Below are positions 4,618-64,000 of a DNA stretch of 64,000 bases, piece by piece. Position 1 is the first letter of the stretch. Each line of letters starts with the position of its first letter. Source of the DNA: a virus (lineage: Duplodnaviria; Caudoviricetes); the IMG/VR virus record IMGVR_UViG_3300021400_000138, positions 96,001-160,000 of that record; one strand, given 5' to 3'. The notes beneath the pieces are model-generated. The model was not told the origin of the DNA. It made no database searches and saw only the letters and a program-made list of their open reading frames with translations. The translations under genes and the position numbers were made by a program.

Positions 4618-4630
4618 ATAATTAAGAAGA

Positions 4631-4790
4631 ATCTCTTAACGATCTCTTAATTTTAGCCTATTGATGAGCTAAAAGCCCTGAAAATAGGCAAAAGAAAAGC
4701 TGCTGACGGGAATCGGAGAAGTGACCGCATGGCTTGAAAGCCCGTAAAATAGGCATTCTTTAAAAAAATAATCTTTTAACGTTTTTAACG
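4631..4790. other. attP-like site; core 4698-4715 equals the reverse complement of a tRNA T-loop/3' acceptor end (Thr-like)
   Basis: AGCTGCTGACGGGAATCG = rc of CGATTCCCGTCAGCAGCT; flanked by direct repeats AAAGCCC..AAAATAGGCA (4672, 4737) and ATCT(C/T)TTAA repeats (4631, 4642, 4771), just downstream of int. Confidence 0.7.
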
Positions 4791-4840
4791 GCCAATAATC
4801 AGGAGGTCATAGCTGATATCTAGCAAATTTCAGCCGACCA

Positions 4841-4895
4841 GAAAAGCATATATGAAAGAATAGTTCTCATCATATTTTTTCATATATGCTTTTTT
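4841..4895. terminator. long hairpin/terminator
   Basis: AAAAGCATATATGAAA...TTTCATATATGCTTTTT inverted repeat. Confidence 0.6.
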
Positions 4896-5004
4896 ATATC
4901 ACCACAGCGATACCTCGCCAAATTGTACTTTTTTCAATACAATCCTCATCTTATATACAAAAATTATTATTCTCCTTTATAATTAAATAAAAAGGAGGTA
5001 CATC

Positions 5005-26614: not shown

Positions 26615-29600
26615 TTATCTTGCTCTGCCAGATTTTCGTAAATCTTTTGCCTGCTCTGAATTCACATAATTTACAATATTATTTAAAAACTTTCTGTTCT
26701 TTGCAAGATCTGATGCAACTTGTTGAATCTTATCAAGAGTAGATTCATCTACGTTTCCATTGACTGTTATTAAGCTGCTAATGTTTACGTTATTTGTTGC
26801 AGTATTATTTGCAATATTCTTTATAACTTCTGCTTGTTCTTGGTACTTCTTAAGTAATTCACTATTTGCATTCATTATGTAATCACGTTCATCGTTACTG
26901 GAGAATAAATCCGCATTTGATTCTATTGGTTTTAATGTACCAAATGATGTTTCTAAATAACCTTTAGAGTCTTCGTATTTTTGTATCTCTGAACGGATAT
27001 TATCCATTTGCTCTTTCGCTTGTTCGATATATTTATTAAGACTATCCTATATGTTATTATTATTTTCTGTATTTTCAATCTTAGCCTATTTTATCTGATC
27101 AACTATTTCTTCAATCTGATTATTTGCATTCTCATAAGAATTAACAATTCTATCAGTGTTTGCATCTATATTTGCCGGGATTTGTCTAATTGGAACAACT
27201 AATGATTCTATTTGGTTCTCTGTTGTTTTAAATCCATTATCAACCACGGAAACAATGTCTAGAACATGTTTTTCTATTTCTCCATCTTTCATTGCCATTC
27301 CAAGATTCATAAGTCCTTTTGTAATATCGGTTGGAATAACTCCTTCGCCACCAGAAAATGGCATAAATGTTCCTCTTCCTGTTGTTATAATCTCAGGGCC
27401 TTTTTCCCAAATTTGAGCAATACCAGGAGCGGCGGAAAGAGTACCTTTTGCATATCTTCTGTATGATATACCAGAAAGACCGCCTTTTGATTTCCAATAA
27501 TCATACGAATAATTCATTTGCTTTTTGATTGAAGAGGTATCAATTTTAGACTTATTCGCATTCCAATTTGAAATTACATTTTTTTGAGTGCCGTTTGCTC
27601 CACCCTATGCTGTAAGCTTCTTTCTATTAACAACAGCGTCCGCAGCTTCTTGTGCAGTGTTGAATCCTAAAACACTTCTGAAATTCTTTAATGCCATATC
27701 AGTTATAAGGTCTAATATATTTTGAAGTGATGTACCATCTTTAGTCCACCCTTTTACATTTACTTCTTGTCTTTCACTAGATGTTTTGGAAGCAGTAGTA
27801 ATTATTCCAGATCTGCCTCCCGAACTACCTGAACCACTTGATCCGCCTGAACCAAAACCACTTCCACTAAATAAACCGCCTCCTGAACCAGGTCCACCAG
27901 TACTAACGACACGAACAGTATTCGCAGCGGAATTAATAATATTCGCGCTATTTGAAGTCGGCTTAATATAAGAAGTGGAAGCCAAATGACTTTCAGATTG
28001 TTGCTGAACAGCTACATCTTTTGCTTGAATTGCCTAGATAACCCTATCAATATTCGTGGATATTGCACTTGCTGTACGTTCTGGAATACCATTTGTTATT
28101 TCTGAAAATCCATCTTTTATTGCCGTCATTGCGTTTGCGCCGTTTTCAAGAGTTGCCTTATTTGCGGTATAATCCCTGATTGCACTTGCAACTTTCTCTG
28201 TTTCTTGTTGGACGGCTCCAGTAATTGTTCCAATTTTTTCAGCTTCTGAAGCAGAAAGATTATCATAATAATGAACCATTTTTTCCGCAGCTGCCTCAAG
28301 TTGATCTTTATTCGGAATAGCTGTGGTATTTTCATGCTGAAGACTCTCAACGCCAACTAATGCCGAATTTAATGTGGGTGAGAACGTTTTAAGCCATGTA
28401 TCGATTCCAGCATTTGTTGCGGTTAAATATTTCTCCAGTCCAGTTGACAAATCATTTATTGTTCCAACAACACTGTCTGTATTAATCTTTAAATCTTTTA
28501 TAATGTTTTCGTAATTCTCATTTAAGTCATCACTAAGTTCACTAAGACCTTCAATCCGCATATCATATACATGTTGTTTTACAGTTTCATCAAGATCATC
28601 TTGAGATTCAGAAAGTCGAGCTTCAAGACGAGCTTTCTGGGCTTTTGATTCTGCATCTGTACATTTATCTTTACATAGTTCGCTACACTATGCCGTACTT
28701 TTGTACGCTCATGCTTTCACATGAGATGAGACTATATCACCTATGCATTAAATACATAGTCTACCATTTTGAATTACCAAACGCTTGCAATCCTACGAAG
28801 CTACACTCATCGCTTCTAGTCGTTGAACTTTATCCTATTCGGATCTTAGCTGCTGGTTGCCCAATATTTATTATTTTCAAACTTTCGCACCTGTACATAT
28901 TTCATTACTATGCTGTAGTTAATAAATCTCTAAGGGTTTTCCAGACAATTAGATAAAACGCCCTACATTTAAGGCCTTCCAGTGCGCGAATCTATTGCTG
29001 TATTAACTGTATATCTTTTGTTTTCGTTTTAAGTTGCCTGTCATAATCATACATCTCTTTTTGTTTCTGAAGTGCTTCTTGCCTTGCTTTTATTAATTCT
29101 TGAATATAACTAATTTCTTGTTTATACCTAGATGTATAAATAGAAATAATCTTCATTCTATAGCTATTTGCATCTTGTAATTCTTTTCTCGTAGAATCAG
29201 TAATTTCTTCTCTCTTCTTAAGATATTCTTCTGCCGAATATGAAGAATCATTTCTCCACCTTTCTTCATTAATTCTATATTCTTCTTGATACTTATTAAG
29301 TGCCTATAATGAACGTGTATATCCACTCATTGCGGCTTCTGCTGTGGCGAGACCGAACTGTGTATATTCTCCATCATCTGTAAAATACATATCTTCCGAG
29401 AACATGCCAACCAGCTCGTCCAAACTATCACGAAGTTTATTTACCTTGGCTATATATTCTTCGATTGGCTTAAAGTATAATACTTCACGAGATTCATCTC
29501 TTAATTTGTCAATTGTAATAATAGTATCATTCATTTTGTTTTGTAATTCATAAAGTTCATTTTGTGCCGTTCTATATTCTTCAGAATCTTCTCCGAGAGA

Positions 29601-32600
29601 AACACCAATTTCCGCCAATAACTATGATTGAACCTCCATGGACTTCTTCATATTATTATATGATTGATCAATATTATCAATCTGTGCCTAATAATTTTGG
29701 GAGAGGGTAGTAGTATCAGTTATAAGATTTCCATTTGCATCCATGCTACGACCAAGTTCATCAATAGTTTCACGAACTTTTTGATATGTATCCGCAAGCT
29801 TTTCATTATTTTCATATAATGATCTGTAATAATCGCCAGCATTTGAAAATTCTTTTGGATAAAGCGTTGCCATTGATTGAGCAAGTTCTCCTATTTTTTG
29901 CTTATTATTTTCTGTTTCTTTATCTAATAAATCTGTTACAGTTTTAAGTTCGCCAGCTTTTGTTTCTAGATTTTCAATATATGCATTCCACTGGTTAATA
30001 TAACTATATACCCATCCATTTAAATTTCCAGGTAATGTAGAAGTATCAATTTTTGTTCTATTTCTAACGGCATCAATGCCAGCCTTTTGAAGAGCAGGAT
30101 TATTCTAAATATTTGTTATTGCTCCCATATATTTTCCAGCATAAGCGTCAACCTTCTTCACATAAGAATCATAACCCTTTTGTGCTTTTTCCATTTCCGC
30201 ATTTAATTTAATTATAGTTTCATTTGAAACCTTTGTTTCTTCTTTTATTTTTTCAAGTTCGGTCTCAAGATATCTATTTGCTCCAACATATGTTTCACTC
30301 GCATTATAATAATTAGAATTCTGTATAGCCTCGCTTAAATCTTTAGATAAATTTTTACTCTTTGCGCTACCAAATGTTCTACTAGAAACATTATAATTAG
30401 ATTGCGCAGAAGCAGCCGCTAACTATGCGTATATAGATTGTTGCCCACGAGTACCAATATTGTTTCCTATTTGAGTAACGGATTGATACTTCTTTGCAAT
30501 CTGATTAAGCTTTTCTTCTGCCTGTTTAACGGGAATATTTGCGAACTCTTCATTAAGATCATGAACTTTTGATCGAGCGGAAACATACTCATTTTCTACG
30601 TTGATTATTTGAGTCATTGCTTTGCGATATTCTTCTGAACCATAACTGATTCTTCCTTGCGTCATATTAACTTCAAGTTCTTCTCTTAATCTTACGGCTT
30701 CTATTCTCAACTTATCTGCTTGTTGTTTATATCTGTTCATTTCCTTAGAATAGCTTTGTGCAATCTATGTGCCGTCCTCAAGATAAGAGCCTGTTTTTAT
30801 AATATAATCACGAGTTGTTGCCAAACTATTGGCTAAAGTTGCTTGCCAATCAGAAAGAGATTTATAATAATTATCAATATTATCCATTTTATCAAATACT
30901 GATTGAACTAAAGATTGCGCATATTCCGCAGCAGATTGGTTAGCTTTTTCAAATTGCTCATTCATTTTTTCTTGGGCTTCTGTTACTGCGCTTGACAATG
31001 CATTTGCTTCAGCCAAACACTGATTATAATAAGCAATTTTATCTGCGTACATACCAAATTGAGAAGCATCAAGGAAATCTCCATTTTGTAAAGCATCAAA
31101 TACATAACTTGGGAGCATTAATCCATTAAATGAATTTTTCGCTCCATTTAATCTGCTGTTAGCCGTTCTGGATTGACTCTTTAAATCATTGTAATTAATT
31201 TTGGACTGTTGATATGCAGCATTATTCTCATTTACTTGTGAACTCAAATTAAGTAGACTCTTTTCAATTTGATAATTAATTGACTCATATGTTTTTCCGT
31301 AAGATTTGATTAATTTCTTTGCTTGACTGCCACCAAATATCCCGGACAATACTTCATTAAGTTTATTAATTCCAGATTGTCCAGTCATAGTAGATATAAA
31401 AGAATTAATACTTTGCATCGAGTTCTAGAGTTTACTAATAGCCTTTTCAAGATCTTCAAATGGAAGATTAATCATATCACTGTAAAGACTACGAAGCTGA
31501 TTTGATAAAGTCTAAATTTGATTAGAAGCATTTATAGCATTATCTGTTAATTGCATATACTGTTGGGCGGCTTCATATAAGGCTTTGCCATGATCGGTAG
31601 ATGTATCAATCTGGTCAATTCTAAAAGCTCCATTTCTAAGATCTTCCAAATTTATTTCATTAGCAAGACTAACCGAATACTCTAATTGAGTTGATTGTAC
31701 AACTTTTAATTGATGTTGAAGATCATTAACCTAATTTTGTAACCATCTGTAATAATCGTTATCTCGATCACTTCCCATAGCGTTCATAGCGTTCTGATAG
31801 TCCGCTAATGCATACTACAAGTTCTTTTCAGCGTTTTTGTCAGTGGCGTAATATTTGTGATCAAATGCCTCTTTTATTGCCTCCTGTGTATACGTTGTAG
31901 CCGCTTTTGAATTAGCCCATAATTCCTAACTAATAGCATTGATTTCACTTCCTATGAGTTGTTTCTTGGTTGCGGTATCAACATATTGTGTAATTTTGTC
32001 CGCAATTTTCTTTGTTTGATTAGAGAAGTATTGAAGTCTTCGCTATACAAGATCAATACTCTGGAACGAATATTGAATCTGATCAACTAAATCATCAAAT
32101 GCATTTCCTACATTATCGGCGGCATCTCCAACATCACGGGCTGCATCTCCAGCATCCCTTGCTGAATCATTATAATCATTAAGATCATCAACACCGTCCG
32201 CTAATTTCTGGAAGAAATCATGAGTTCCTTCAGGTAGAATATTAAAAAATCCAGAAGCAGATGCCGTTGCAAATGAACGCATTCCTTCATGCATTGTCCC
32301 GCTTGCAAATGCCGATTGACCACCTACAATTTTTCCAACTCCGTGGGCCGCACTATGCTTTATAAGATCCTCTGTTTGCTTTGCATTCAGAATAATTTCA
32401 CCACGTTTAAGGTGTTCTACGTGCATTCCGGGAGGAAGTAATTCCCATGTGCCATCCCGTGTAATTCTGCTTTCCTGGCCGATTTCATTTACGAGCGCAT
32501 CTTCGTCTTGCTTTAATGCCACATCACCTCTTGCATGAGCTGGAAGCGAGAAAGTACCAGCTGCATGATGTGCGAATTTATCAGCAAGAACCGGATTGTT

Positions 32601-35600
32601 CTACATATTTGCAGCAAATGTATCATAATTAGTTTGTATATTTGCTTGAATTTGTGCTTGAATAATATTAGATTCAATTCTCTCTTTTAATTTATTATAT
32701 GCGTCTTCTGCCTAATCGGTCTCACCTTCAACTTCAACAGTTGGATGTTCCATTTCAATTGCATCTTTAAGATTTTGAATATCAACACTTCCTTGTCCAT
32801 CTTCAGCATGAACAACAAATCCTATTTCTTCCCCATCATGTTCTTCTATACGTTCTAATAGTTCAGTAACATTATCCTCGCCCTCAAAGTATATTTTAAG
32901 ATCTCCTTCATTTTGAATCATATCAACTATTTGTTTTAATTCTTCTGTATCTTCTGAAGAAATTTGTAAGCTTCTGTCCCAATTTAATTCAACAAAACTA
33001 TCGAATAGCCCCTTTAACTAATCTATAAAATCCAAATTAGAATATTCTTCCGTATGATCTTCCTAGAAATATGGATTGCCATTATACACTTCTCTATCAT
33101 ATTGCTTCGGTTCCGGTGCATTTCTTAATTCTGATGCAACATATTCTACTGCCATATTAAACGCTTCTTTTGCAACACGCTCAGAAACACTAGCTATTAT
33201 TGTTTCTATCATAGATGGATCTGTCTGTGTCTATTCCTCTTCGTAGTAGTCATGCTCGACATAATCACCATAATAATCAATATCTTTTTCTCTGTTACGT
33301 TCATCTATCTTTTGCATTAATTCATTAATAAAACCTAATATTGTTGTGTCTTTAGAAGCTTTATCTTCTTCGGCAACTTCAACCTGTACTTTTGGTTCAC
33401 CTTTGGCAAGATTTTCTAAAAATGCCTTTGCAAGTAACGCTCCACCAACAACCAGACCGGATTGTATCGCTTCGCCTATTTCTTCTTTTGTCCAAGTTAT
33501 TGAGCTACCCTCTGCGAAAGACGGAAGAGTAGATTTGCCGCCAACAATTTTTGCATTAGTTGAAGATTTACCAGTTTGTCTTAATTGTTCCATCTAACGG
33601 CTATTTAAAATTACATCACCCTTTTTGAGATGTTCTATGTGCATACCTCCTGGAATCTCATATAATAAACCATTTCGAATTATCCCCTCATGGCCAGGAA
33701 GTTCATTTACTAAAGCATCTTCATCATGAGCTAAATGTCCATCTTTTATATTGCTCCCACGGGCATAAGCACCTAAAGTACCAACCGCATGATTTGCAAA
33801 TTTTTCTGCAACGTTTGGATGTGCCTGGGTAGCTAAATATTGATTAAATCCTTCATAATTAGCTTGGAATCTTATATTAATAGCATTGGCTTCCAAACGC
33901 TGTTTAACATCGTTATATGCTTGTTCAACCGAATCCATGGTGCCCACTATATTAGCATTTATTTCTGTATCATTTAAATATTTTTGTAAGTCTTCAATTC
34001 TTCCATCAAATATGCCCATATCATCGTGAATAACAAATCCTATTTCTTCGCCTTCGTGCTCTTTAATAAAATCAATAAGACCATTAGTATCATCTTTTCC
34101 TTCAAAATAGAATTTTATATCACCATCACCTAATTGCTATGCTTTATTAATTATATCAAGTAATGCTTCTGTATCGCTTCCGGTTACTTCAAGTGTCGCC
34201 TTTGCTGCCCCAGATTGGCTTAATCTATCCCAAAAACTCATATCTGCTTTTTTCTCTTCTATGGTCTAATAAGATTCGCCTTCTTTTTGTTTCCTTTCTT
34301 CTTCCCATTGTGCCTTTATTACTTCAAATTCTTCAGATTGACGGTGTAAATTTTCCATCCCTTTATCAAATGCTTCAGCAGCACCCATTATAATATCCGC
34401 GCCTACTTCAGCCATACCCTTATATACTACTTGTTCTATTGGAGAATAATCAGCTAATGGGTCTGGTTTTTCTGGTTCCGGTTCTGGTTCCTTACGTTCA
34501 GTGCCGAGCAAACTATCTATCACATACTGTCCTGCACTTTCTGCTATCATTTTAGGAAGAACATTGATCGCTGCATCTTTAACTCCTTCTTTAATATCGC
34601 TAATCATACCAGGAAGCGCATCTTCTAAAGTCATACCACCATATTCATTAAGGTGCGAGAGTATAGTTTCCACTAATTCATTTGTTTTATTGATTGCTCC
34701 AACCTCTTCTGAATTATCTACAGCTATTTCTGTTTTGTTGTTATTAGAATCCATAATGGCCTTAATTACTGCATCAGCAATTTTACCCCAGGTAAGATCA
34801 GAAGAACTGCTTCCCTCAGCAAATGATGGAAGAGTAGCTTTGCCACCAATAATTCTTGCATTTCCAGATGCTCTGCCAGATTGCTTTAGCTGCTCCATCT
34901 AACGAGTATTTAAAATTACATCACCTTTTTTAAGATGCTCAACATGCATTCCTCCTGGAATTTCACGAAGTTGACCGTTGCGGATTATTCCCTCATGACC
35001 TGGTAATTCGTTAACTAAAGCATCTTCATCTTTTGTAAGCTTTCCATTTTTAACATCCGTTCCTTTTGCATAAGCGTTTAATGTGCCATGGGCTTTATAA
35101 TAAACAATGCTATTTTTAAGACTATTATCATAAGCAGCTTGCGCTTGACTTGGTAATTGATGACTTGGCATTGGGCCGATAGGTTCTTCATAAATTTGCA
35201 TTTGCACTGGCTATGTCAATGGATTAAGATTCATATTATTTTGCTGTATCTGCAAAGTATTATTAAACGGATCCATATTTGCATCAACTGCTTGTAACGC
35301 TGCTGGATTAGCTTCTATCTGTTGCACTCCATCTTGTACTGTTGCATTAAGTGGATCAATATTTCCACCGACTTTTACTTTCGGGAATTTGCTAGGAACA
35401 GTTTCTTCACAAAATGTATTTAACACATCAACTGCATCCTGGTCATTTGCGCTAAGTATAAATTCTATTTCTTCACCATTATTGTCTTTAATATAATTTA
35501 TTGCTTCTTCCACAGTAGTAGCGATGCCATTAATTATAATGTCTATATTACTGTTTTGGCTAATTTCTGTAATAGCAGAAGATAATTGCTCTACATCGTC

Positions 35601-38600
35601 TCCAGAAATAGTAACATTAAATACAGAACCATCACTTGCTTTTTGTTGAATAGTATCCTGCTTATTTTCTAATGCGTTTAATCTCTCCATTCCTTCATCC
35701 GTATCAATATTAACTTCCGTTTCTTCTTCTGCATTTTCCTGCGTCTCATCAAGTGAACTATTTAATGTACTAAGATTTGCCTCTGCTTCATCTGTATTTG
35801 CTCCTTTAAAACTGCCATCTTCTGCAACGTTATTTTGTGTTTCGTCAACTGTTGTGTTCAACGAATCGAGTTGACTTCCATCGGCAGTAACAACAAATTC
35901 ATGTTTACCATTAATCAAGGCAATAGTTTTATTTGTTTTTGCTACGGCATCCGTAAATGATTCGCCTTCTTTTCCAGTAATAGTAATACTAATTACGTCA
36001 CCATTTCTATATTCATATGCCTCATCGACCACATCTTCTACGCCATCATTTGTAGCTGTAATTTTGATTTCAACGCCATTTTTGTCGGCATATTCTTGTA
36101 GATTTGTTAGCATACCGGATATGTTCTAATTGCTAATTTCTTCATTTACTTTGAAAGCAACTTCAATCTCTTTTACTTCTGACTGTTGAATATCATCAAC
36201 AACTCTCGGGTCAGATCTATAGGTTTCGAGTGCTCTACTAACCTTTTCTTCGCTCATTCCCATATTTTGTAGTTTCTCTTGTATTTTAGAAAGAGATATT
36301 TTATCAGCGGCATTGTCTATTGCTTCTTGCGTACTATTTGTAAATGCATCTTTATCTACACCAACCTTAAGACTAATATTATTAAGAGATTCAAGTAATT
36401 CATTCACTTGTTCCTGGTCAAGTTTTACAGTCATTGAATAATCACTAGAAGAAAGCTCAGAAATTTGACTCTTCAAATCTTCGAGCTTCTGTTCGTCCGC
36501 ATATACATTAAGGTCGAGATCGAATTCTTTCGCAAGTGTTTCATCATCTCCCTCGGCAATTAATTTTTGCCAAAACTCAACACGTTCACCCTGATTGCTT
36601 ACTGGCTCTAGCCTTGTTCTAATAACATATTCAGCATCAAAGTTATTCGCAGTAAGACCGAATTTATCAAACGAATCAATAATTGCTGTACCAAGTTCCA
36701 TTGCCTATTTTTTACTATATCCAAGACGATCACCAATTGCTATAATAGCAGCCTGCGCATCTTTTGCGTCTTGTGATACATCTGGAAGTAAAGAGTAATC
36801 TTTTGTCATATCAATCGTCTTAAGGAATTCCGCACTATAAGCACGAAGACTATTTAATAGTTGTTCGTCTTCTTCGTCCATATGTTCATAAACATCACTA
36901 ACTCTATGTAATACTTCGGCAAAGTCATCTGCTTTTTGAAGTGCTGATTTACCAAGACCGTCGTCTTGAATATTTGTATACATTCCTAAAAGCAATCCTT
37001 TTGTATCCCTTCCTCCAGCAAGTAATTGATTAGCATATTCTTCTAATGCTTCATAAGAAAGGACTTCGCCGTTTGGAAGAATTGGTGTAAGAGCAACGGC
37101 AGCCTATCCATCTTCACTAGGGAATGTATGACTATATAAGGTTACCAGATCATCTACATTGCTATCATCAATTTGAACAGCATATCCAGCACTCGCCATA
37201 TCTTCTAAGCTTAACTTTGGTCTATTTCTTAAGTCGAGCATTCTCTGTGCTGTAGCTTCTTCCATCTTGCCGAGTGTATCTTCATAAGAAGCCTGAACAA
37301 GAGAGAATGTACCATCTGCATTTTCAGTAATTTCCATACCGAGTCTATCAGCCATCTTTTTGGCTTCATCATAGAAGTATGTCACGATTTTTGGATCAAA
37401 CATATTTTGATTTGCATAAGCAAGAAGATCATTAATGCCAGCAATATCGGCGTTATAAGATTCTTCTGTAATTAACGGTTCATTCGCATATTGCTGCGCC
37501 ATTTCATCAAGATTTCGATACCTCTCAATTAATTTATCAATATCTTCTTGACGCTCTTGCATTGTTATATCTGAAACACCTTTAACTTCACCATCTGCTC
37601 GTTTTACAATTTTTTGTGCAAGCTCTTGAACAGTTTCTATTTGTTGGGCCGTTGCATCAACTTCATTTAATACAGAAACAACTTCAAAACCATAATCCTT
37701 TAATGCCTCAAGAAAAGTTTGTATAATTTCTTCATCTGGTGCGGCTTGTGGTCCTCCCCATAATGTTCCGAGAGCCTGACTGATTTCTTCCAGATCGGTT
37801 GTTTTGAAAGTAAATACTCCAGCATTATCTTCAGCAATTCCTAAATCAGTAAGATCTTCCATGAAATTTAATAATCCCATACCATCAGGTCTAAAATATT
37901 CTGTAAGCCACGGATAAATATCTTCAAATGCTCTAGCAGTATTGCGATCTTCTTGAGTTAACATCTCAATAGCCGTCTTAAAATCGTCCGTACCGATAAG
38001 ACCAGCATCCCTCATCTTTTCAAGATTCGCCAATTCATTCTATATGGTATCATATTTTGATCTTCCATTAGGTGTTTGCAACGCCGCTTGCCACTTCGTG
38101 AATCCTGACATAGATTCTTCGATTGCATTTTGCGCTTTAGCATATGCCTGTACCTCAAGACCAATTGCTTTTATTTCGGAACGAATATTTTGCAGATTCT
38201 GTTTAGCTGCATTACGTTTCGTCGTACCATCAATATCTACCTGTTTAGATAATGTTTTATATATGTTCTGTTGTGTTCTTAATTGAGCATTAAGTTTAGA
38301 CATCTGGGCAAGAATCCCCGTAGAAGATATCTTTCTTTGAAGATTAATATATCTTTCAAGTTCGCGGAAGTTTACCTTGATTCCTTGAGCAGATCTATAG
38401 AACATGCTAGAAAGATCAATATTAGAAGATATTTCTTTTAATTCACTAAAAGAGGAGATTAGAGCATCCATTGAATCTTGATCAATACTATCTGTCAATG
38501 ATTGATTAATTACAGCGTTTACACCCTCAAGAAGGCCCTCTGCCTGAAGTGAATAATGATGTGCTATTGATTTATCATAATCCTCAACCGTAGCAGATAA

Positions 38601-41600: not shown

Positions 41601-44600
41601 AAGTCCAGAGAATAGTCCATTAGACTTTCCGTCTTTTCCAAAATTCAAAACTCCAAGACCAAATATTTGTCCTACGGTTCCAACAATACCAGAAAGTAGT
41701 ACCTTGAATGCACCGCCTTTATCTAGTAGTGTTGTAAATGCTCCAACAAGACCTGTCGCTCCATCCAGGAATATTTTTATCCAGTCGCTGTCAATTGATA
41801 TTGCGGCGAGTTCCTGGAGGCGATTTTGAAGTTTTGCAAGTTTGCCGTCGATTGATTCGAGGTATTTATCGAGTTCTTGTTGAGCGGAACCAGCATAATC
41901 ATTTTCAGCTGCTTCCTTTACTTGTTCTAATACGTCTCCGTTAAGTAAAATTGAAGAAGCAATATTCATTTTGTTACGTATTAATATACGAATAGGTCAT
42001 TTCTGCCTATTTCTGCATTTTCCCTCTTAGATTATATATGCAGATCAGATCATACCTTTACCATATTTTGGTACCCCCATACGTTTAATTGTTACCTTTT
42101 AAACTATGATCGTTACGGGCTTAGTTTTACCCACGGTATTTTCCATCTCTGGAATTCACCGTTTTGAGAGGGTTTAAATATTATATATTTCTATATAATG
42201 GAGCAATATTACTTTTCACTCCTATTTTTTCCACGTTGTATTTACAAGGGCCACAACTCCTTGCGTGTTTATAAACACCTTATACTTTCATATAAGACTA
42301 GACTATTTCTTCATCTCCACCATTATGTGCTGAGAGTACACCTTTTCGATTTAATGGATTTTCACCAACGCCTTTGTGATTGCGCCCTACTCCTATTGAC
42401 AAAATGTCCACCTCTGTGGGATAGTCGTTGAACCTTTATCCTCGTCTTTACGTTAGAATACTTGGCTGCATGAACAGCGATTTCTCTCCAAATAGAAGAG
42501 TAGTACTTAGGCTTTTAACCATATACCATCCTTACGTTGTTTCTACTTTCGTACCATCATATTGTGATTTCTCCAATATTGTGGTGTAAGGCTTTACGCA
42601 TTACCTGCAATTAGATGTAACTTATCATGCATATTTCTATACATGTAGGCCATTATTTAGCCAAAGCTTCTACCAAAGCATTTGCTCGGTTCTAACCTGT
42701 TTGTTTATCAGTTTCTTGTATCTCTTTATACACCTTAGAAATATCTAATAATATGTCATATGTACTTCTAAGATTTCCATTATTGTCTAATACAGACACA
42801 CCTTTAAAATTATTGCTTGCAACAGCAGTATAATCTCTGATCAATTGATCGGTTTTTGACTTTGTACGTACTACGAAATCGTCAATGTCTTCGCCAAGTT
42901 CCGCGATTTCATTCTTGGCTTCTTCTGTCAATCTGTTACTTTCGGTGAGCCACACCTACTGACTATTAATAAATAATAGCGGCTAGTCATTTCTGGCTAA
43001 CTCTCACATTTCATAAATTGTGGAATATATTGTGAGTTCGGACTGTGTATTTACCTTATAAAAAGGAACAACTTAACCTATTATGTTGCCACAATAGACA
43101 TCGCAGTCTCTACGGATTTATATAATATATTATACATATTCATAACGATAACCTTTAATTGTTTTTCTAATACCAGTTACCACTTCATAAATTTTAAAAG
43201 CAATAGTGCCGTTTTCTTTTGCAGCCTATAGCATATTATCATAGGCCGCCACACTCTTATTATTTAAATCCAATTTTCTAACCGGATAATAAAATTTTTC
43301 TAATCTATTTTCAGGTATTATATAATCTCCAGATTCATATAAATCTTTTGGTACCCAATAATGTTCATTAGAATAATATCCCTTCGTATAAATTGCAGAG
43401 ATTATTCCGCTAATATCAATGGAATTATCTCTCGCAGCATCCGCATATGAACCATATTCTTTTTGATAATTCCGATGCATATCTAACATAACTATTGGTC
43501 TACGAGTACTTTTAATATAATCATCAGGATAATACAATTTGTTTTCATGAAGAGCATCATATATCCTATGCGCATTTATGCATAATTCGTCAGCTATTAC
43601 CTGGACTTTCATTCCAGAATTTAATTTATTCTATATATCTACAAGATTTAGTTTTTTGTTATAATCCATTTTGACCCATGATGGAATCTCGTTGATATCT
43701 GGAAAGAAGTATTGAATATATTTTAAAACCGGAACGCCATCAATCTCGTAGTCATAAAATTCATATCCTCGATTTATCCAGTATTGTTTTTTAATATTAT
43801 CTCGAACTTTCTATCTTTTAAATCTATGCCATTGTCCTTGTACTTCAATAGCTATTTTTAACCTATGGTTCACAATATCTGTCGGCATAACCTTTCCAGT
43901 ATTTGGATTAACGCAAGATGGATCTTCTTCTATTGAATCAGGATAATAATGTTTATAAATTTGTTTTAATACAAGAGCATGTAACGATTCTAAAGTATCA
44001 TCACAATTAGAACATGAAATTCCTTTATGCTATTCATCGTTTCTTCTTAAATTATATAGTGATTTCTTTATTATTTTACCACATCTTGTACATTTAAACT
44101 CAAGTATGGAATCTTTGGTAATAATATCTTCTTGATTTGAAATACATTTAAAATTTCCATTAAATCGTATTTCTAAGTATTTATTTATATTATAAAGTAT
44201 GTATGGATTTTTTATTGCAAACCATATGGGATTTTTCTTTTTATCATTATTTATATAATTTTCTGCTTTAACAGATGCGTAATATTGCCCATCACTTACT
44301 GTTACCAGCTGTTTTACAGATTTAAAATCATGCTCTTTGGTAATTAATATTAATCCAAATTTTTCTAAATTGTTTTTAAGTTTATAATACTTTTCCATTT
44401 TTTCTCCTTTATAAATTGTTATTTGCATAATATAACTTTCCTCGACTTTGGCATTTCCACTATGCTCTTAGTCGATATAGTTGTTTATAAAAAATATATT
44501 ACTATATTTCCGGGCTTCCTTCCTAGACCCGCAATCCTTAAACTAATAGTACGTACCCCTGCACTTGTCTTACTCATATCTTGAGTAATTAAATTCCCCG

Positions 44601-47600
44601 ATGTGAGGAGACCCAACGTTTCATCTAAACTATTATTCTGTGTCATTAATACAGCCGCAGCATTCTGAAGACCCTATGCGAGTTCATCAGTACTGACGGC
44701 AAAATTGTTTGATCTGTTACTTTCAGCAATATGCCTACTAACTATCTTACCAAGATAGCGGATAGGACGTTAATCCTATCTCTGCATCTTTATATATACA
44801 TGCAGTCCAGACTGTATATTACATCCATAAAGGATGGATAACTTCATAATAGCAATTACTCACTATTACCCGCAGTCGTTACGGTATAAATAATAATAAT
44901 ATTATATTATAATCATTTTTACCTCGGTGTTGTCCAATTTAGGATGTTCACCGATATAGTTATCAAGTTGTGCAATATGCACAAAAACCAATTTTAATTT
45001 TCATTAAAATATAGGCAACATTCACCTACCAAATTGAGTTTGTCTACGATAGAATTTGGATCTATATCTTTATAAGCTTGCGTAGCTGATACAAGCGATT
45101 GTGTAGCATCATTTATATTCTCAAATTCAGATACATTTAACAACTTCGTAGAAAGAGCAGCCATTTCTTTTGCTTCAGAGAAAGATTTTCCTAGCCTTAA
45201 CCAGTCAGCAGTAGAATCTTGTATGGCTTTTGCAGTCGTTCCTAATTGATCCGCAATATCAAACGAATCAAACTGATACTTCTGTAAACTGGAAAGCGTC
45301 TCGTCACTAACCTTTCGCATTTCAGTCAAAGCTGTATCAAGTTCTCTTACAACAGTTACACCCTGTCTGAAGATGCCAATTACTTGATAAAAACTAGCAA
45401 ACGACAACAAGTATCTTCCAAGGTTACCAAAGGATCCCTTCAACTTCTCTGCAAAACTTTTTCCAGTATTTCCAGCATCTGCTGCAGCGGCAGCGATCTT
45501 TTTAAACGTATTTACTAAGTTATCACCCTCAGCCGCACTTATCTATTCGCTACTAGCTAATCTGTCATATATAGGTTTAATCTCTGCTATGGCTTGCTTC
45601 GCTTTTGAATTATTTGCCATCCATTCAGCCATGGACTTAGCCATATTGGATCGATGATTTTGATCCATCCACTGAAATGCTCCACCTGTATTTACGTTTT
45701 TAATAGCATTATCTATTTCTTTAAAACCAGCTTTGACTTCGTTTACACTCTGTTGATAATCTCCGTTCCAATCAATAGAATCTATCGTTCTTTGTAAATT
45801 ATGATACATTTCTGTTATTCTATTTACTTCATCCGCGTATGCCGCTGGCCTATCACTTTCATCTCCAAGATTATCTACCTATATTCCAACGGATTTATAG
45901 GTTCTATCCAACGCATCTTGTATAACCTGAGTCTAAATTTCTTTTAATTCCGCATCTAAAGATTCTGCCATATCCTGGCTCATATCCTTAAATACACCAG
46001 TTGATTTTCCTGCGTCATCTACGGCGCCTTGGTATTCCTTGATTTTCTTTCTCGCATCTTCAAAGTATTTAGTATATTTGTTAAGCCATTCCTATTCGCT
46101 AATTGTTACCTTCCCGTTACTTTTCTTTTCGAGGAGTGTATAATATTTGGTTGCCAAAGCTATAAGATTGTTATATCCTTTTTCAACTGTATCAAAACCT
46201 TCTGGCGTAATATTCGCGGCACGATTTCCTGCATCTGAAATTCTCCCACGTTGTGTTGCCAATTCATCCGCAGTAAATTTTGTAGAACCAGAACTTACTT
46301 TTTCTTCAAGAGTCTATATTGCCTTTTCAGCTTCATCTGCTTTTCTCTTTACATCTGCAAGACGAGTAGTAAGAGACCGTGTAACATTTTCTCCGTGACT
46401 TTGACGTTCTGACAACGCCTCAAGTTTTTCCACGGCAACAATATAATCATCAATCGCTTTTGTCGCATCCTTTATTTCTTTTGTTTCTTGAGAATCAACC
46501 TTTTTAGCTTGTTGTTCAGATTCCCTCTGCGTTTTTCGTTCTGCTCTTTTCCTTTCATTTTCCGCATCTCTATCAGCTTTTCTTTGTGCGGAATCCGCCT
46601 TGTCTTGGTCTTTCTTTTCATCAGATAACTTTCGTTTTCTCTCAATTCTTTCTAATGTATAATCGAGACCATCAAGCGGAGCCAAAGCCCTTTTTTCTAT
46701 GTCTTTCGCCATCTTTTCGTTAAATAATGGATTTTCATAAAGGGCATCGGTTAATTCATATATTTTATCAGCTAATTTATCTATTTGATCAAGATCTCCT
46801 TCTAGCATCTTTCCAGCTGCCACATCTTTTTTCAAGTCTATATATTGTTTTACTACTTCAGATAATTCCCGAAGCCTTGCTTCTTTTTCCTCAATGTTTC
46901 TATCTTTAGCTTCTGATTCACGCATACTTTGTTCATACTCTTTTTGATCCGCAGCCATTTGATCAAACACCTTTTTCTACTTTTTCGCCTGCGCCTCTAT
47001 ATCTTTTTCTGAAGCCTAATTAACATAATATAAATCGGTATTTGTTTTCTATTCTTCTTGATCCAAAAGGGTACTCTCGGCAGCTTTCCTCGCTCTGTCA
47101 AATGCCTACGCTAATTCATCAAGCTATTCCCGTGTTAAATTTGATTTACCAACAAATTGTTCAAGACCAGTTATAGATTCAAATATTTGTTTTGATAATT
47201 TTTCTATAGATTTTGGAGTTTCAGCTTTTGATAATTCATCTATATTATCTTTTACTTTTTTAATATTATCAGCAACGTTGGAATAAAGCGTATTCGTCTG
47301 CGTAACTGTACCATTAGGTCTAAGCGTAACATTTCTTTTTGTACCACCCATATCAGTGATATCAAATGTGTCCGTTATCTTTCCCTCTTTATTTATCTCT
47401 GATTTTTTTCTTATAGAAATGATATTATTCATCTCTATTCCGATTTTACGCAACTTTTCAATAAGCGCATCATATTCCTTGGAACCAGGCATAAATTCCA
47501 TTTCATCCGATCCAAACATACCACGAATTTCTTCTGCAACCTATTGTACTTTGGCCTGTCTTACTGTATCTACTGTTTTATCTATCTCGGCCTGTGGTCT

Positions 47601-50600
47601 GCTCAATATCTCAGCAAAAGACTTTAATGCATCCTTACTTTCGGAGATTTGCTGGAAAAGATTTCCGAATAATCCCTCCGTACTTGTACTAGCAAAAGAT
47701 TTGGTTAAATTCTGTAATTCCGTTTCAAAGCCTTTAATTACCTCTAACTCTTTTTGAATAATACCACTAATGGTTGTAATATCTTGAGTAAAGGCTTCAT
47801 TCTTTTTGTTAATGGCATCAGGCACTTTATTAATCAATTCACTTTCAAGCTCTCCAATAATTTGCTTTTCTTGGTCAACAACGTTTCTAACAACTTCAAC
47901 TTCTCCATTGAAAGCCGCATTTTTTGCACTTATAGCTTCTGGAATATCAACTTTCAACTTATTCTCAAGATCAGCAATGCTTAATACTTCATCTTTTACA
48001 TTGTCTGCTGGAACATCCCCGGCTTCGATCTGCAATGATTTTAATCCAAGAACAGATTGAATACCCTGAATAAGCCCATCAAAACTCTCTGAGAATTTTG
48101 TAATGCTTTCAGTTGATCCCTTAAAGAAATCTGTTGTCTAAAGCATTTCACGAAGAGAAGAAATAGAAGTAGTAATATCCTGAATTTGTTTCAATATAAC
48201 AGGAATACCAGATTCATCATCTATCATTTTGAACACATTAGAGATTTCTTGAATTTCTTTTAATAAACTTTCAAGACTTCCAAGCAACTCTTTTATTTGC
48301 TATTCGTCAAAAGCAGCAGCAACTGGTTTATCCGAACCGTTTGCAACTTCTTCTTGTGCAGACGCAACTTCTCTAATCGCACCAGCCGCGCCTTTAGCCG
48401 CCGCACCAAGGTTTTCCATATCCTCTGTTTCTGGTTCTATAGAAGTAGTAGGAGTAGATGGTGAGGTTTCAACTGGTTCAGATATTACTTTTTTCAACTC
48501 CTCTTTCTTTTTTTGAATTGCTGCAATATAATCTTCGTAAAACTTAATTGTATCTTCATTTTTAGATCTCTTTCTTGTTGCGCTTGCTTTCTTTTCTTCC
48601 GCTTCTAGGGCATCAATATCCGTATAAGAATCGATTGAAGCCATCTTTTGTTCGCGTTCTAACTCAACCTTAGTTTTCTTTTTGGCGGGAGCTTCAGTGG
48701 CTAATTCTCCAGAAGTAGAAGAGGAGAGTTTGGTCCATTTTTCTGTTACTTCATCAAATGTATATCCAAGTTCTTCGGCCTTTTTATTAAGTCTTTCTAT
48801 AGCTTGTTCGAATGGAAGATCTTGAGTTGTTATTGCCGCTTCCAGATCTTCGACGGTGTTTTTTAATTCTTCTGGAGCTTTTGATGCTCGGGCGTTGAAC
48901 TTTGTTGATAAATCTTCTGGGGTTTCATTAGATATTTTCTAAATATCCGCCTTAAATTTATTTTTCTGCTATATCAACTAAACAATTTGATTTTTTGCTT
49001 CTAATTCAGAAATTGCGCCATTGTAATAATCTATAAGCACCTATGCAAATTCTTCTGTTTTATTTTTTAACAATCTAACAGTGGCACCAAGAGCCTCATT
49101 AGATACCATCGACATTTCAGGATTTGATGTTATACTAAGGCCAGGTAAACCATATTGCTCACCATAACTATCACCTAAAACTCCACGATGCCCAGCAAAT
49201 CTAAACAAATACTATTCAACTGTCTCTTCCGGATTAGAAATATTATCTACGCTCGCAGAATTATTAGCTAATTTAAACACTTCTTGTAATGCTAAACTGA
49301 GTTCCTTTGCTGACATGGTGGCTTTATTTAACCCTTCAGAAATCTATTCCCCCATCTATTGACCAGTTTGCCCAGCTTGAACTTCTGACTCAGAAATAGT
49401 TTCTACTTGAGATGGGAGAATAGTAGTACCCGATGAAATCGGATTTTCACCAGATGTTTCGCGTTGTGTATCATTTAACTTCCCAACAGAATCTGCTGCG
49501 TCATCAGCAGCGGCAGCAATACCTTTTAACTTTTCTTCTGAAGATTCTGGAACAACAACGTTAATAGTCTATATCTTTTCAAAGCTTTCAACTAAGCTTT
49601 TTGTCTTATCAATCAATGTTTGCATTGCCGTGTTTAGCTATTCAAGATAGGAAATATCTTGATCAGATACGCCAAGTCCTTTTGCAAGAGTATTTTGTAG
49701 TTGCTATAACGCTTGTGCCAACTCACCAACGACACCTGACGCCTCTTTGGCTTCTTCTTCTCCACGCTTATCAATTGATTTTCCTAATATTTCAAAGGCT
49801 TCCTCTCTTAAAGATTTTCTATTATCTTTATGAGATGCGTTGATATCATTTATTTTTCTGATCTCAGAAGCAATATAAGACATCTCTGTACCGGGAGCAC
49901 GACTGGTTCCTTTACCTGTTAAATATTTGTAAACATCATAATATGGATTTTGTTCTAAATAAGAAGCAATTCTTTTTTGGTTCTATTCTTTCCATTCCTC
50001 AAATGAGCTAAGACCAGAATCCAAATATTCAGAGCTAAATTTTCCCCAAACATCGTCTTCCAACATTTCACTAATAGCTCTCTCCAAATTCTTCATAAAA
50101 TCCATTACTGCCTATATTCTTTCTTCTGGGTCTTTATTTTGTTCTATTACAGAAGATCTGCTGAAATATTCAACTATATCTCTTCCTGACGTCATCTACC
50201 TAAGATAATCTGACGAGGTAAGACCAACGAGAAATTGTTGCGGATCGCCTTCGTCTCCGCCCAATATTCGTTTATAAGCATCGCGGAATATAGAAAATAT
50301 CTTATCATAGGCATCTGTGTATCTCTTTGCTTGCCTCCTCCATACGTCTTCCTCAGCTTTAATCCTTTGTTGAACATCAAGGGAAGTGTCTTCTCTTAAA
50401 TTAACGTTAAACTCACTTTTCCCTATCTTTCTTTGCATTGCGCGAAGTCGTTCCCTTACAGACATGGTATCATTTCTAGCCGCGCCAGAACTACCATCAC
50501 CGATTACTCCGATTGATAAAGAAATATTATTTAATATACCAACGACTTCATTAAGTGCATTACTAAATGCTTGAATATTATCAATACTAAATGCGTCATC

Positions 50601-51935
50601 AATAGAAGAACCGATATTATTCAACTATTGCAATAAATCAGATAATCCACTTTTATCATCAATAGTGTCAAAACTATTCGAAAGTACCTAAACAGACTCC
50701 ACTAGTTGCTTTATTAATTCTATAAGAGCCTTTATTTCTTCCGATCCCCATGCATCACCTGGTTCAAAGTTTTGAACTGCCTCATTTAGTTTATTTTGAA
50801 TATATTCTACCTTGTCTGCATATTCTTGGTATTCGCGTAGGCGATCTTCCATATTTTCATTACGCAATTTATAATGCTCATCATCACCCGTATTATATGA
50901 ATCAACAGCGTGTTCGTCCCAATACTTAGCATCATCTAATGCCTCATCACGAAGCGCCTGAAGTTCTTTTAATGCCTTCTTATATCTTTCTATCTTTGGA
51001 AGATCCTCATCAATTGTAAACGAATAATCATTGACTTCCCAATCATACTCAATTTTATTCTTCCCTTTATATTGTGATTCTGCTTTTTTCTTTAATTCTT
51101 CAATAGATCTATAAGCTTTCTTTTGTCTTTCTGCCGATTCTTCTGTTGCCTTTGCCGCTTTCTCGGATGACTCCGCTGACTTTTCGCCAGCCTCCTCGGT
51201 TTTCTTCCCTGCATCTTCAGCAGCTTTTCCTTCTTCCTTCATAGAATCCGCTGTGTCTCCCGCAGCTTCTGCGGCTTTTGCCCATTCAATAGTATTGATT
51301 TTCGGGAGTTCTATCTGTGCCTTTTCAAACATTTCAAAGGTAGCACCAGCTTCTTCTCTTAATTCATCAAAATATCCAAAGACTCTTCTAAGATTTTCAA
51401 CTCCAAAAGTATTTCCCTTTTCTGGTTGTAGCGCCTCTAATTCTCGCATCCTATCTACAAATTCTTTTAGCTGTGGACTAACTTCTTCAAGATTGCCACC
51501 AAGTGCCTCAAAAGCATTCGCATATCTGAATACTTCAGTTGACGCTGTATTTTTAGGATCAACCATTTGATCTATAGTAAAGTTATTTTCTTTCTGTATA
51601 TTGCCAAGTTTATTCCATGATTCAATCAAGGAAGCCTAAGCATTATTTTGTGTTTGATAATATTTTTGTGCGTTTGTAACTCCGCGAATTGCGCCTGGTT
51701 CTGAAAGTTTTCTGGAATAGGCTTCCTCCATTCTTCGTTTAATTTCATTTACCTTTTCTTCATTACTTGGATCAAAGTCTATTTTGATTTTAATATTCTC
51801 TACTTTTTTGCTTGTAGCTCTTATTCCTGCTTCAAGCTCATCCGCTTTTTGTATTATTTTGTCTACTTTTTTCGAAAACTAATCATCATTCTTAATAATC
51901 TCGGCAACATCTATATAACCACTTTTCACACCCAT
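26615..51935 (-). CDS. tape measure protein, ~7473 aa; exons 45024-51935, 44527-44709, 42659-42928, 42218-42232, 28972-41966, 26615-28661; TAG=Gln
   Basis: AAGGAGGTG RBS/ATG 51935; track fragments in-frame across TAGs; splicing restores TMP motifs DKLNLVG|NNFAVSTDELA, RTISLRIAG|TEEAK, EALA|GKNRS|NIASSILLN, ALEGL|TDAESKAQKARL. Confidence 0.88.
28662..28971 (-). ncRNA. group I intron A in TMP (310 nt, no ORF)
   Basis: P1 GCCU/GGGC with U.G at splice site; TTCAACGACTA and GATATAGTC P7 strands; terminal G; removal fixes the frame change between 29304-29618 and 28034-28561. Confidence 0.9.
32250..35600 (-). repeat. three ~406-435 aa tandem repeats inside TMP
   Basis: GEEI.F..., DEDALVNE..G.E.I.R.G...E.P.GMH.EHLK.G.VILN recurs; equivalent Gln codons at 34899, 33594, 32376. 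Confidence 0.85.
41967..42217 (-). ncRNA. group I intron B in TMP (251 nt)
   Basis: P1 GGAGU/GCUCC; P10 AATATT pairs with exon start AATATT; CGTAACGATCA / TATGATCT P7; ends GTAACAAAATG. Confidence 0.85.
42234..42659 (-). ncRNA. group I intron C in TMP (426 nt; boundary ambiguous by 1 nt)
   Basis: AATTGCAGGTAA, GCAGCCAAG, TTCAACGACTA, AAGAAATAGTCT core motifs; P1 GGCU/GGCC. Confidence 0.85.
42929..44526 (-). mobile_element. group I intron D in TMP carrying a homing endonuclease (1598 nt)
   Basis: P1 CGGGU/GCCCG; CGTAGAGACTG / ACACAGTCC P7; ends GTAACAGATTG. Confidence 0.88.
43130..44398 (-). CDS. intron-encoded Vsr/DUF559-like (PD-(D/E)XK) homing endonuclease with Zn fingers and NUMOD1-like repeats (422 aa, 4 TAG)
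   Basis: AAAGGAG RBS; CTRC, CSNC; PTDIVNHRLKIAIEVQGQWH...RDNIKKQYWINRGY; YGSYADAARDN repeats; fragments 44030-44428 and 43226-43612 in one frame. Confidence 0.8.
44710..45023 (-). ncRNA. group I intron E in TMP (314 nt, apparently ends in A)
   Basis: P1 AGGU/GCCU; P10 TGTT pairs with exon AACA; CGTAACGACTG / TATACAGTCT P7; ends GTAACAGATCA. Confidence 0.85.
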
Positions 51936-53632: not shown

Positions 53633-54688
53633 TCAACCACCTTTCACATATTTTTCCTGAATATCTTTTAAACTAATTTTATAATATTGTTTTAGAAATT
53701 CATCAAACTGTTCCGGTGTATTATGACCATAGCCATATTCTCGATGAAATAAAACATGAATCTCTTTAGATATTAAAATACCAGAATAAGAATCATGCTT
53801 CTAAACTATCTTGTTTAATAGCTCTTTATATTCTGTTTCATTAACGAAATCGCTAATCTTTGCTCTTTTGCTTTCAATATCTATATCCAATTCAACTACA
53901 GCTTCTTGAAAAATAGTGCTTAAAGAAATTAGATGATGAATATCTGCATTTATCCCATATTCTCCAGAAATAGGGCATACCTTATAACAATTACGTATGT
54001 CATTTTTCCAAATAGTAAGTGCTTGTCTAATATTATCTTCCAATAGTGAAATACCACCTTTATAATTCCAATGATTTTTCCCACTTCTAGCTTCAATTGC
54101 ACACTAATTACAACTAGAACAGTGCTGTAAAAATTGAGATAATATCAGTTGACACTTATGTCCATTTTGACACAAACATTCTACCGGAGTATACGCGTTT
54201 TTATATTCACCAATAATTTTATAACCTTTCTAAGAAAAAATATATTTTGCGTCTTCGGCTGTATATTTTGTTTTAGCTTTAATTAAAGCCATATGTCCAC
54301 ACTCAGGACAACGATCTTGTCCAGATGTAAACTTCTTTAACGATTTTTCGAATATATTTCCACAACTACATTTTATCAGTAATTTTGAATCAGAATTCTT
54401 ATAATCTCCCTAAACATATTCACAGCCATGATCTCTTATAATATCGATAACATGATCCAACGAAAATCTATTTTTTTCAGAAGCTATTTCATGCGAACAT
54501 TTCTCACACCAAATCCTTCCACGATTAATGTGTTCAAAATCTCTTTCAAAAATCTTACCACATTTTCCACATTTTAATTTCAAAAGAGTACTGCTATTAA
54601 CATACTCCGTTGATAACAACTCTGTTGTACCATTTGAAAGTTCAAATATTCTTTGTCTTACTTCATCGATAGTTTTTCTTTTTGGCAT
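53633..54688 (-). CDS. free-standing HNH endonuclease with Zn-ribbon repeats (351 aa, TAG-recoded)
   Basis: repeated LLSTEYVNS...KCGKCG...WCEKC; ADIHHL...IHVLFHREYG..HNTPEQF. Confidence 0.8.
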
Positions 54689-63660: not shown

Positions 63661-63772
63661 ACTTCTACCTCCTTAGAGTTGAATCTCCTGATATAGTTAA
63701 ACGCAATGCGGAGAAGCCAGGAGGAGCTTCTCCATATAAGAGTGATCAAGTTCTTATATTTATTGCGTTTGC

Positions 63773-63865
63773 TAAGCCCGCTGGAATTCGAATCCAGATT
63801 ACCTCCTTCAGAGGGATATCACGCTTTTAGAGAGCGGTGCACTAGTCCAGTTGTGCTACGGGCCT
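63773..63865 (-). tRNA. amber suppressor tRNA, anticodon CUA, long variable arm
   Basis: acceptor AGGCCCG/CGGGCTT; D arm GCAC/GTGC with GG; anticodon stem CGCT/AGCG with loop CT-CTA-AA (63828-63830); T arm CTGGA-TTCGAAT-TCCAG; no encoded CCA. Confidence 0.88.
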
Positions 63866-64000
63866 ATATATTGGACAGTAAAAAATACCGTCCTTAAAAT
63901 AAAAAGAGCAGATAATCCACTCTCAAATTACAAATAATGTTTATAAAAATAATCGTTTATCATATCTACTACTTTATCCTCAAGATGATATTCTTTAATC

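Follow-up and report, generated by a model that had tools for sequence, protein, structure and literature searches.

Positions 96001-160000 of the virus record IMGVR_UViG_3300021400_000138 (185,390 bp, ending in direct terminal repeats) make up the 64,000-nucleotide (nt) stretch analyzed here, which we refer to as the window. On its minus strand, between 51935 and 26615, the window in all likelihood contains one late gene for a giant tape measure protein of 7,473 amino acids (aa), in which TAG is read as glutamine and from whose pre-mRNA five group I introns would be removed. The features on which this reading is built are collected in Table 1, in window coordinates.

Translated with the standard code, the minus strand of 26615-51935 gives a string of short open reading frames (ORFs). 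When TAG is read as a residue, the same region yields four long frames of 2313, 432, 4354, and 648 aa; the 432-aa frame lies outside the tape measure gene and is the intron-borne endonuclease ORF discussed below. The exons were rebuilt independently from P1 pairings, the positions of terminal G residues, and homologues, and the rebuild returned exactly the figure of the initial annotation, six minus-strand exons (51935-45024, 44709-44527, 42928-42659, 42232-42218, 41966-28972, and 28661-26615) totaling 22,422 nt. The joined coding sequence consists of 7,473 codons and a terminal TAA; it includes 67 in-frame TAG codons and no internal TAA or TGA. Introns 1-4 are packed into 3,057 nt (45023-41967) of the conserved core, which agrees with the ~3 kb first reported, and intron 5 sits 13 kb beyond this cluster. 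Each of the five introns adds a TAA to the upstream frame within 1 to ~20 codons, and in intron 5 the in-frame TAA comes straight after a read-through TAG. Unspliced exon frames would end in read-through tails, for example ...LVGECCLYFNEN.

Residue-level continuity with relatives is the strongest evidence arguing that the intervening sequences leave the RNA. When the last 225 residues of exon 1 were run as a phmmer query against the full library, 5,683 relatives came up, including uninterrupted giants of 4,100-5,400 aa. In three uninterrupted proteins (P0007, P0022, and P0017) a single BLAST alignment spans junctions 1-4; against P0007, residues 1903 to 2873 of the joined protein fall in one alignment (44% over 997 aa). 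Over the 196 residues that surround the four junctions there are no gaps, with identities of 76% (P0007), 71% (P0020), 68% (P0018), and 63% (P0022). Junction 5 (ALEGL|TDAES) likewise shows no gaps against P0022, and it lies inside collinear alignments to P0023 and P0067. Removal of the introns therefore restores the conserved motifs at all five junctions, as initially proposed, in gapless alignment to intron-less relatives. The peptides that span junctions in the exon model are LNLVGNNFAV, RIAGTEEAK, ALAGKNRSNIASS, and ALEGLTDAESK. The junction peptide given in the initial annotation, LNLVG|NNFAVSTDELAQGLQNAAAVL, is the reading of the uninterrupted homologues. Three single-protein queries for related loci in viral contigs returned no match, and MT835469 (locus L003) was too distant to inform the comparison.

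The joined product is classified by homology as one tape measure protein of the TP901/SPbeta type. Family profiles were matched against the exon pieces separately. For exon 1, the C-terminal part has a match to phrog_4211 (tail length tape measure protein, 2.5e-22), and successive pieces of PF10145 are spread over exons 1, 2, and 3 (profile positions 56-117, 86-145, and 151-193; 26.1, 17.1, and 15.0 bits, each alone below the 33.2-bit cut-off). The start of exon 5 matches positions 261-344 of TIGR01760 (21.2 bits; cut-off 28.8). Distant homologues include SPbeta YomI and the phiCD211 tape measure protein. Downstream, an ORF at 21951-25712 matches the minor tail protein phrog_6211 (1.4e-24), and related contigs keep this order of a tape measure gene followed by a minor tail gene.

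Some features of the protein and its relatives are recorded here as separate observations. Residues ~4560-5720 (window ~35300-38500, minus strand) form three repeat modules of ~330 aa, each ending in ALVNE...MHVEHLKKGD...Q-x-E-x-L; single-copy relatives have this motif near the C-terminus, and exon 6 holds a degenerate fourth copy. The P0010 contig (ENA ERZ1029115) has a 3767-aa ORF, endonuclease-like ORFs, and then a 7786-aa ORF, and the P0021 contig (ENA ERZ27257207) a 2092-aa ORF followed by one of 6420 aa. If joined, these pairs would give proteins exceeding 8,500-11,500 aa.

The codon TAG is assigned to glutamine in this phage by comparison with homologues and by its own repeats. TAG aligns with the glutamine of homologues in ELAQGL, and in the threefold repeat of the protein itself two copies carry TAG at positions that a CAA/CAG glutamine codon occupies in the third, in the motif ...N-x-x-Q-(T/M)-E-x-L. 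A predicted suppressor tRNA is encoded in the window (Table 1), and the contigs of loci L009, L010, L011, and L012 yield their database proteins only with TAG as glutamine.

All five intervening sequences are identified from their sequence and predicted structure as group I introns, the class to which the initial annotation had referred them. At the start of each, the guide sequence and the final 4-6 bases of the exon form a short P1. Introns 1, 2, 4, and 5 show a U-G wobble at the 5' splice site, and clear P10 pairings are seen in introns 1, 4, and 5 (AACA/UGUU, AAUAUU/AAUAUU, and UACA/UGUA). The 3'-terminal G (omega G) occurs in introns 2, 4, and 5, and in intron 3 when it is drawn as 42659-42234; intron 1 is without it. 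Introns 3 (54.1 bits) and 5 (51.0 bits) pass the 50-bit cut-off of the Rfam family RF00028, and intron 1 has a partial match of 20.4 bits, which covers P4-P6 to P7. An Rfam scan of the whole window at the gathering threshold gave no hits because its speed filters dropped all five introns; smaller stretches score above the cut-off.

Introns 1, 2, and 4 are grouped by structural modeling into one RNA family. The contig of P0008 (L010) has a homologous 243-nt intron at the exact site of intron 1, and RNAalifold of the two gives P3, P7.1, P8, P9, and P9.1, with 16 compensatory pairs. The 3' halves of these two sequences were used to build a covariance model, R1, in which P7 (GACUG/CAGUC), P7.1, P8, P9, and P9.1 are specified. 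R1 gives end-to-end matches to intron 2 at 43116-42929 (86 bits, E 8e-19, ending on G42929) and to intron 4 at 42119-41967 (33.6 bits, E 5e-6), these E-values being rough for a model of only two sequences. Both matches in the window end on the G that had been predicted beforehand as the last intron base. In L011, a third phage, R1 also detects the intron 2 homologue, which occupies the same site (90.6 bits). An nhmmer search with intron 1 gave no sequence-level match to introns 2 or 4, so that the kinship is visible only with the structure-aware R1. The minimum free energy (MFE) fold of intron 4 shows P1, P2, P3, P4-P6, P7.1, P8, and P9-P9.2 in the expected order (z = -4.0).

Taken together, the proposed course of expression is as follows. 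The guide sequence of each intron would pair with the end of the upstream exon to form P1; self-splicing, which we infer from the RNA structures and the continuity of the exons, would join the exons into the exact sequence encoded by uninterrupted relatives; and the phage suppressor tRNA would then read the 67 TAG codons.

Several points weigh against this reading. Introns 2 and 4 have no match to RF00028, and R1, the model that supports them, is built from only two sequences. A44710, the last base of intron 1, aligns with a terminal G in four homologous introns whose P7 is identical. With the terminal G kept, intron 3 and three homologues have C-G and not U-G at the cleavage site. It could also be asked whether these are separate genes, or a decayed pseudogene, in which the intervening DNA represents inserted mobile genes without RNA splicing. 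Gene callers do give separate ORFs: on the second assembly L012, genes of 2313, 422, and 4354 aa are called separately, which bears out the earlier remark that the gene is hidden from annotation. Three of the five introns, moreover, lie below the Rfam cut-off. Yet exons of 61, 90, and 5 codons would need to stand alone as genes, one conserved domain runs across all breaks and aligns to homologues without gaps, a P1 pairing and a group I core flank each break, and no other stop codons have accrued over 22.4 kb. We consider separate genes or a pseudogene highly improbable and a single interrupted gene the better description.

Table 1. Exons, introns, intron ORF, and suppressor tRNA of the tape measure locus (window coordinates)
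Feature	Coordinates	Strand	Length	Remarks
Exon 1	45024..51935	-	6,912 nt	Residues 1-2304; 30 TAG; ATG at 51935; ends ...KLNLVG; open frame with TAG as glutamine
Intron 1	44710..45023	-	314 nt	IA-like with P7.1; P1 exon GUAGGU/GCCUAU; last base A; partial RF00028 match, 20.4 bits; MFE z = -5.6
Exon 2	44527..44709	-	183 nt	61 codons; 1 TAG; NNFAVSTDELAQGL...SLRIAG; PF10145 piece, gapless against homologues
Intron 2	42929..44526	-	1,598 nt	Same family as intron 1 (R1 model); P1 CGGGU/GCCCG; ends ...GUAACAGAUUG; endonuclease ORF in P6 loop
Intron 2 ORF	43130..44398	-	422 aa	4 TAG; in P6 loop; NUMOD-type homing endonuclease family
Exon 3	42660..42928	-	269 nt (270 if drawn to 42659)	1 TAG; TEEAKNEIAELGED...LVEALA; PF10145 piece, gapless against homologues
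Intron 3	42234..42659	-	426 nt	P1 GGC(U)/GGCC; ends on G42234; RF00028 54.1 bits
Exon 4 (micro-exon)	42218..42233	-	16 nt	Gives (A)GKNRS; 3' end forms P1 of intron 4
Intron 4	41967..42217	-	251 nt	P1 GGAGU/GCUCC; P10 AAUAUU/AAUAUU; ends on G41967
Exon 5	28972..41966	-	12,995 nt	31 TAG; three ~330-aa repeat modules; open frame
Intron 5	28662..28971	-	310 nt	P1 GGCCU/GGGCG; P10 UACA/UGUA; ends on G28662; RF00028 51.0 bits
Exon 6	26615..28661	-	2,047 nt	4 TAG; stop TAA; open frame; collinear with C-terminal parts of P0022, P0023, and P0067
Suppressor tRNA	63771..63866	-		Anticodon CUA; predicted by ARAGORN

Two other candidates were discarded. An alternative 3' site for intron 5, after G28674, is without P10 and adds four residues relative to P0022; and a third GAAAGTAACAG, at genome position 18350, is a chance match within a coding ORF. 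Further group I introns occur outside the window, also on the minus strand, at genome positions 162398-162781, 163575-163867, 166181-166314, and 4305-4612. Two of them resemble intron 3 and score 59 and 40.9 bits on RF00028, one resembles intron 4, and one reaches 30.9 bits, bringing the genome total to at least nine.

The five introns look like selfish homing elements, a reading suggested by one endonuclease ORF, one remnant of another, and presence that varies between relatives. Intron 2 holds the ORF in its P6 loop. Among the homologues of this ORF, 233 carry PF07453 (NUMOD1) or PF22083 (I-HmuI-NUMOD), and one is named 'intron associated endonuclease'; the C-terminus of the ORF itself has weak matches to phrog_20162 and PF22083. 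A sequence search of PDB, by which the nuclease domain could have been typed, gave no match. L011 has a homologous intron with a homologous ORF at the intron 2 site, and the intron 2 ORF of the window is not like the intron ORF of L010. Intron 3 retains CAAGGAGTTGTGG (42251-42263, minus strand) at the place where its L009 and L010 homologues have a ribosome-binding site and the start of an endonuclease ORF, apparently a scar left when such a gene was deleted. The pattern of presence is patchy: L011 is without intron 1, L010 without introns 2 and 4, and P0007 and P0020 without all four core introns. Across the window, L009, L010, L011, P0011, and P0019, the core is a hot-spot with at least seven insertion sites; L010 is clearly interrupted three times and probably a fourth, and L011 has three interruptions within 5.7 kb. 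Homing introns would thus have accumulated where the gene is most conserved, intron 2 keeping its endonuclease gene and intron 3 having lost its own.

Two other nuclease-related ORFs were noted at or near these sites. An ORF with GmrSD_N (PF03235, a type IV restriction enzyme family) lies inside a tape measure intervening sequence in L010 (15326-16402) and in the P0010 contig, where a homing endonuclease would be expected. In the window, an HNH-endonuclease-like ORF with 4 TAG (53633-54688, minus strand; phrog_559, 1.5e-30) stands two genes upstream of the tape measure gene.

The initial annotation placed tail assembly behind two post-transcriptional gates, a suggestion that we regard as conjectural. 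In its fullest form, tape measure synthesis would be held back until late infection, or confined to it, by serial splicing together with the need for a suppressor tRNA. A tape measure is generally a low-copy virion protein, and inefficient splicing could therefore be tolerated; TAG codons, furthermore, occur in this late gene and in the intron ORF alike. The timing of expression by recoding has been proposed for recoded phages such as this one (bioRxiv 10.1101/2021.08.26.457843). The introns, however, come and go between close relatives (L011, L010, P0007, and P0020), which is the pattern of selfish homing elements and therefore fits these better than a regulatory device. Regulatory gating seems improbable to us, and we return to the reading of the introns as homing elements.

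The end of intron 1 raises a difficulty of its own. The terminal letters are ...GUAACAGAUCA in intron 1, ...GUAACAGAAAG in its L010 homologue, ...GUAACAGAUUG both in intron 2 and in the L011 counterpart of intron 2, and ...GUAACAAAAUG in intron 4. For exon ligation, the standard mechanism places the terminal G in the guanosine site (PMC2588497). The join GGT|AAC is nonetheless demanded by homology, because the glycine is invariant in all relatives inspected. The second assembly, L012 (ENA ERZ12302819, a 96.5-kb contig at ~16x coverage), is identical over 9,269 nt, including the terminal A. The same A in a separately deposited assembly makes an assembly slip unlikely, provided that the reads behind the two assemblies are independent. 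Exact-pattern scans of viral and metagenome contigs for strain variants of the intron-1/exon-2 junction found none. Intron 1 may ligate poorly, may ligate despite the A, or may use sites shifted 4 nt upstream on both sides, this last being possible because the exon reads GGUAGGU.

There is thus an appreciable, though minor, likelihood that intron 1 fails at the sites predicted by homology. Without ligation, the protein would be truncated and the phage defective or a poor producer. With the shifted sites, the 5' cut would fall after U45028 and the 3' cut after G44714, keeping frame and length and turning the invariant glycine into serine (LNLV-S-NNFAV). The terminal A, present in the window and in L012 where homologous introns have G, speaks for failure, and the shift is helped by two coincidences read from the sequence: both alternative sites are exactly 4 nt upstream, so that the frame is kept, and the upstream GGU also pairs with the GCC guide. 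On the other side, the glycine is found in every homologue inspected, the alternative P1 has 3 bp against 6 bp for the main P1, and G44714 falls inside the conserved P9.0 pairing; the same sequence in the second assembly (~16x), if its reads are independent, also suggests, without proving, a circulating and so viable phage. We retain splicing at the homology-predicted sites as the more probable course.

The intron boundaries of the initial annotation hold overall, apart from intron 1, which ends in A and not in G, and intron 3, which is best placed one base earlier at both ends. Homologous introns are present at the intron 3 site in L009, L010, and L011. By homology the intron 3 join is GCU|GGA, yet GGA is preceded by U, with the G one position upstream of that U; the L010 homologue shows the same offset (GCA ... 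AUG-A|GGC). The intron opens with the base that also follows the G (A in L010, U here), and in both places this base would pair with one and the same guide base (U in L010 and G here). Such a pattern would be expected if P1 handed over to P10, and for that reason intron 3 is best drawn as 42659-42234, which leaves the predicted mRNA unchanged and gives a micro-exon at 42233-42218. The upstream exon then ends in a C paired with G in all four homologues. The U-G pair of intron 3 is one base inside the intron, and the three homologues read GC|A with an A-U pair and without a wobble. In homologues in which the micro-exon region is uninterrupted it reads ALAGKNRSNI or AGKTRSNI.

Other ways of arranging this region were tried and set aside. 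Canonical chemistry at intron 3, with the cut after the wobble U and ligation after G42234, would leave an extra U that shifts the frame, likewise in L010, and a +1 ribosomal slip on the A-run to mend that frame is pure speculation. A composite intron from 42658 to 41967 would skip GKNRS, which homologues keep as AGK(N/T)RS, and intron 4 has a perfect P1 and P10 of its own.

It is conceivable, though we think it unlikely, that two ribozymes here break supposedly universal group I rules, intron 1 by accurate ligation although its 3' end is A and its guanosine-binding helix is unchanged, and the intron 3 family, in four phages, by cleavage after a C-G pair in place of the U-G wobble. If this were so, the locus would offer natural substrates for splice-site choice without those two nucleotides. 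The two non-canonical splice-site nucleotides are in any event concrete and cheap cases for ribozyme specialists.

The locus shows the load of selfish introns that one essential virion gene can apparently bear: five ribozymes, two of them flanking a 16-nt exon, together with stop-codon recoding. Such a gene is reported by current gene callers as unrelated fragments. Tape measure proteins of at least 7,000 residues are hereby recorded for a clade of large gut-type siphoviruses, and called ORFs on related contigs add up to more than 11,000 residues; one may ask whether, in proteins so large, tail length continues to scale with the number of residues. Neither a tape measure gene with five introns nor phage-gene ribozymes 16 nt apart turned up in the literature that we searched. 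The initial annotation had called the arrangement exceptional against a background of introns in DNA-metabolism genes. This was overstated, as tape measure introns are known (PMC2504315, phiCD211), a crAss-like capsid gene is in five pieces (PMC7886860), and relatives of the present gene have three to four interruptions in the same core.

A close parallel is found in prophages, where group I introns of classes IA1 and IA2, with or without endonuclease genes, were described in 2008 at three tape measure sites, up to two per gene (PMC2504315). TMP-IVS1, IVS2, and IVS3 of the Bacillus cereus group (Tourasse and Kolsto 2008, PMC2504315) are likewise IA-type introns that sit where a siphovirus tape measure gene is conserved. 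They too are related introns with P1 and P10 adapted to different sites, with endonuclease genes or remnants, and with variable presence. Those genes have no more than two reported introns, encode ~1,200 aa, and use the standard code, whereas here there are five introns, 7,473 aa, TAG recoding, and a 16-nt exon between two introns. In Clostridium phage phiCD211 (NC_029048), a misc_RNA Intron_gpI is annotated between two 'tail length tape measure protein' coding sequences. In this large Firmicutes siphovirus (131 kb), a group I intron interrupts the gene for a homologous tape measure protein (28% identity to the start of exon 5); a single intron is annotated there, the code is the standard one, and the total length is ~2,700 aa. 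Just upstream of its Intron_gpI (5419-5684), R1 has a weak match in phiCD211 (L002) at 5216-5430 (16.8 bits, E 0.06), and the intron there may exceed its annotation, or be two.

Bacillus phage SPbeta YomI (2,285 aa) is homologous and collinear in the core domain, and a related contig has a YomO-like neighbor gene; YomI is, however, uninterrupted, uses the standard code, and is one third the length. In mycobacteriophage Cluster J, capsid and tail gene introns are spliced in late expression (PMC3706429). These are also group I introns in virion genes, although there is one per gene, experimentally verified (PMC3706429), as compared with five known from sequence here. Up to 14 introns per genome are on record for recoded crAss-like phages, and one of their capsid genes is split into five fragments (Yutin et al. 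2021, PMC7886860). Their late structural genes, like this one, pair suppressor-tRNA recoding with dense group I introns, but they are podovirus-like Crassvirales of Bacteroidetes without a tape measure, and the capsid example is said to be without recoded codons (PMC7886860), whereas recoding and introns here occur in one gene. Set beside these systems, the present gene is extreme in intron number and in size, and is built from known parts with no new mechanism.

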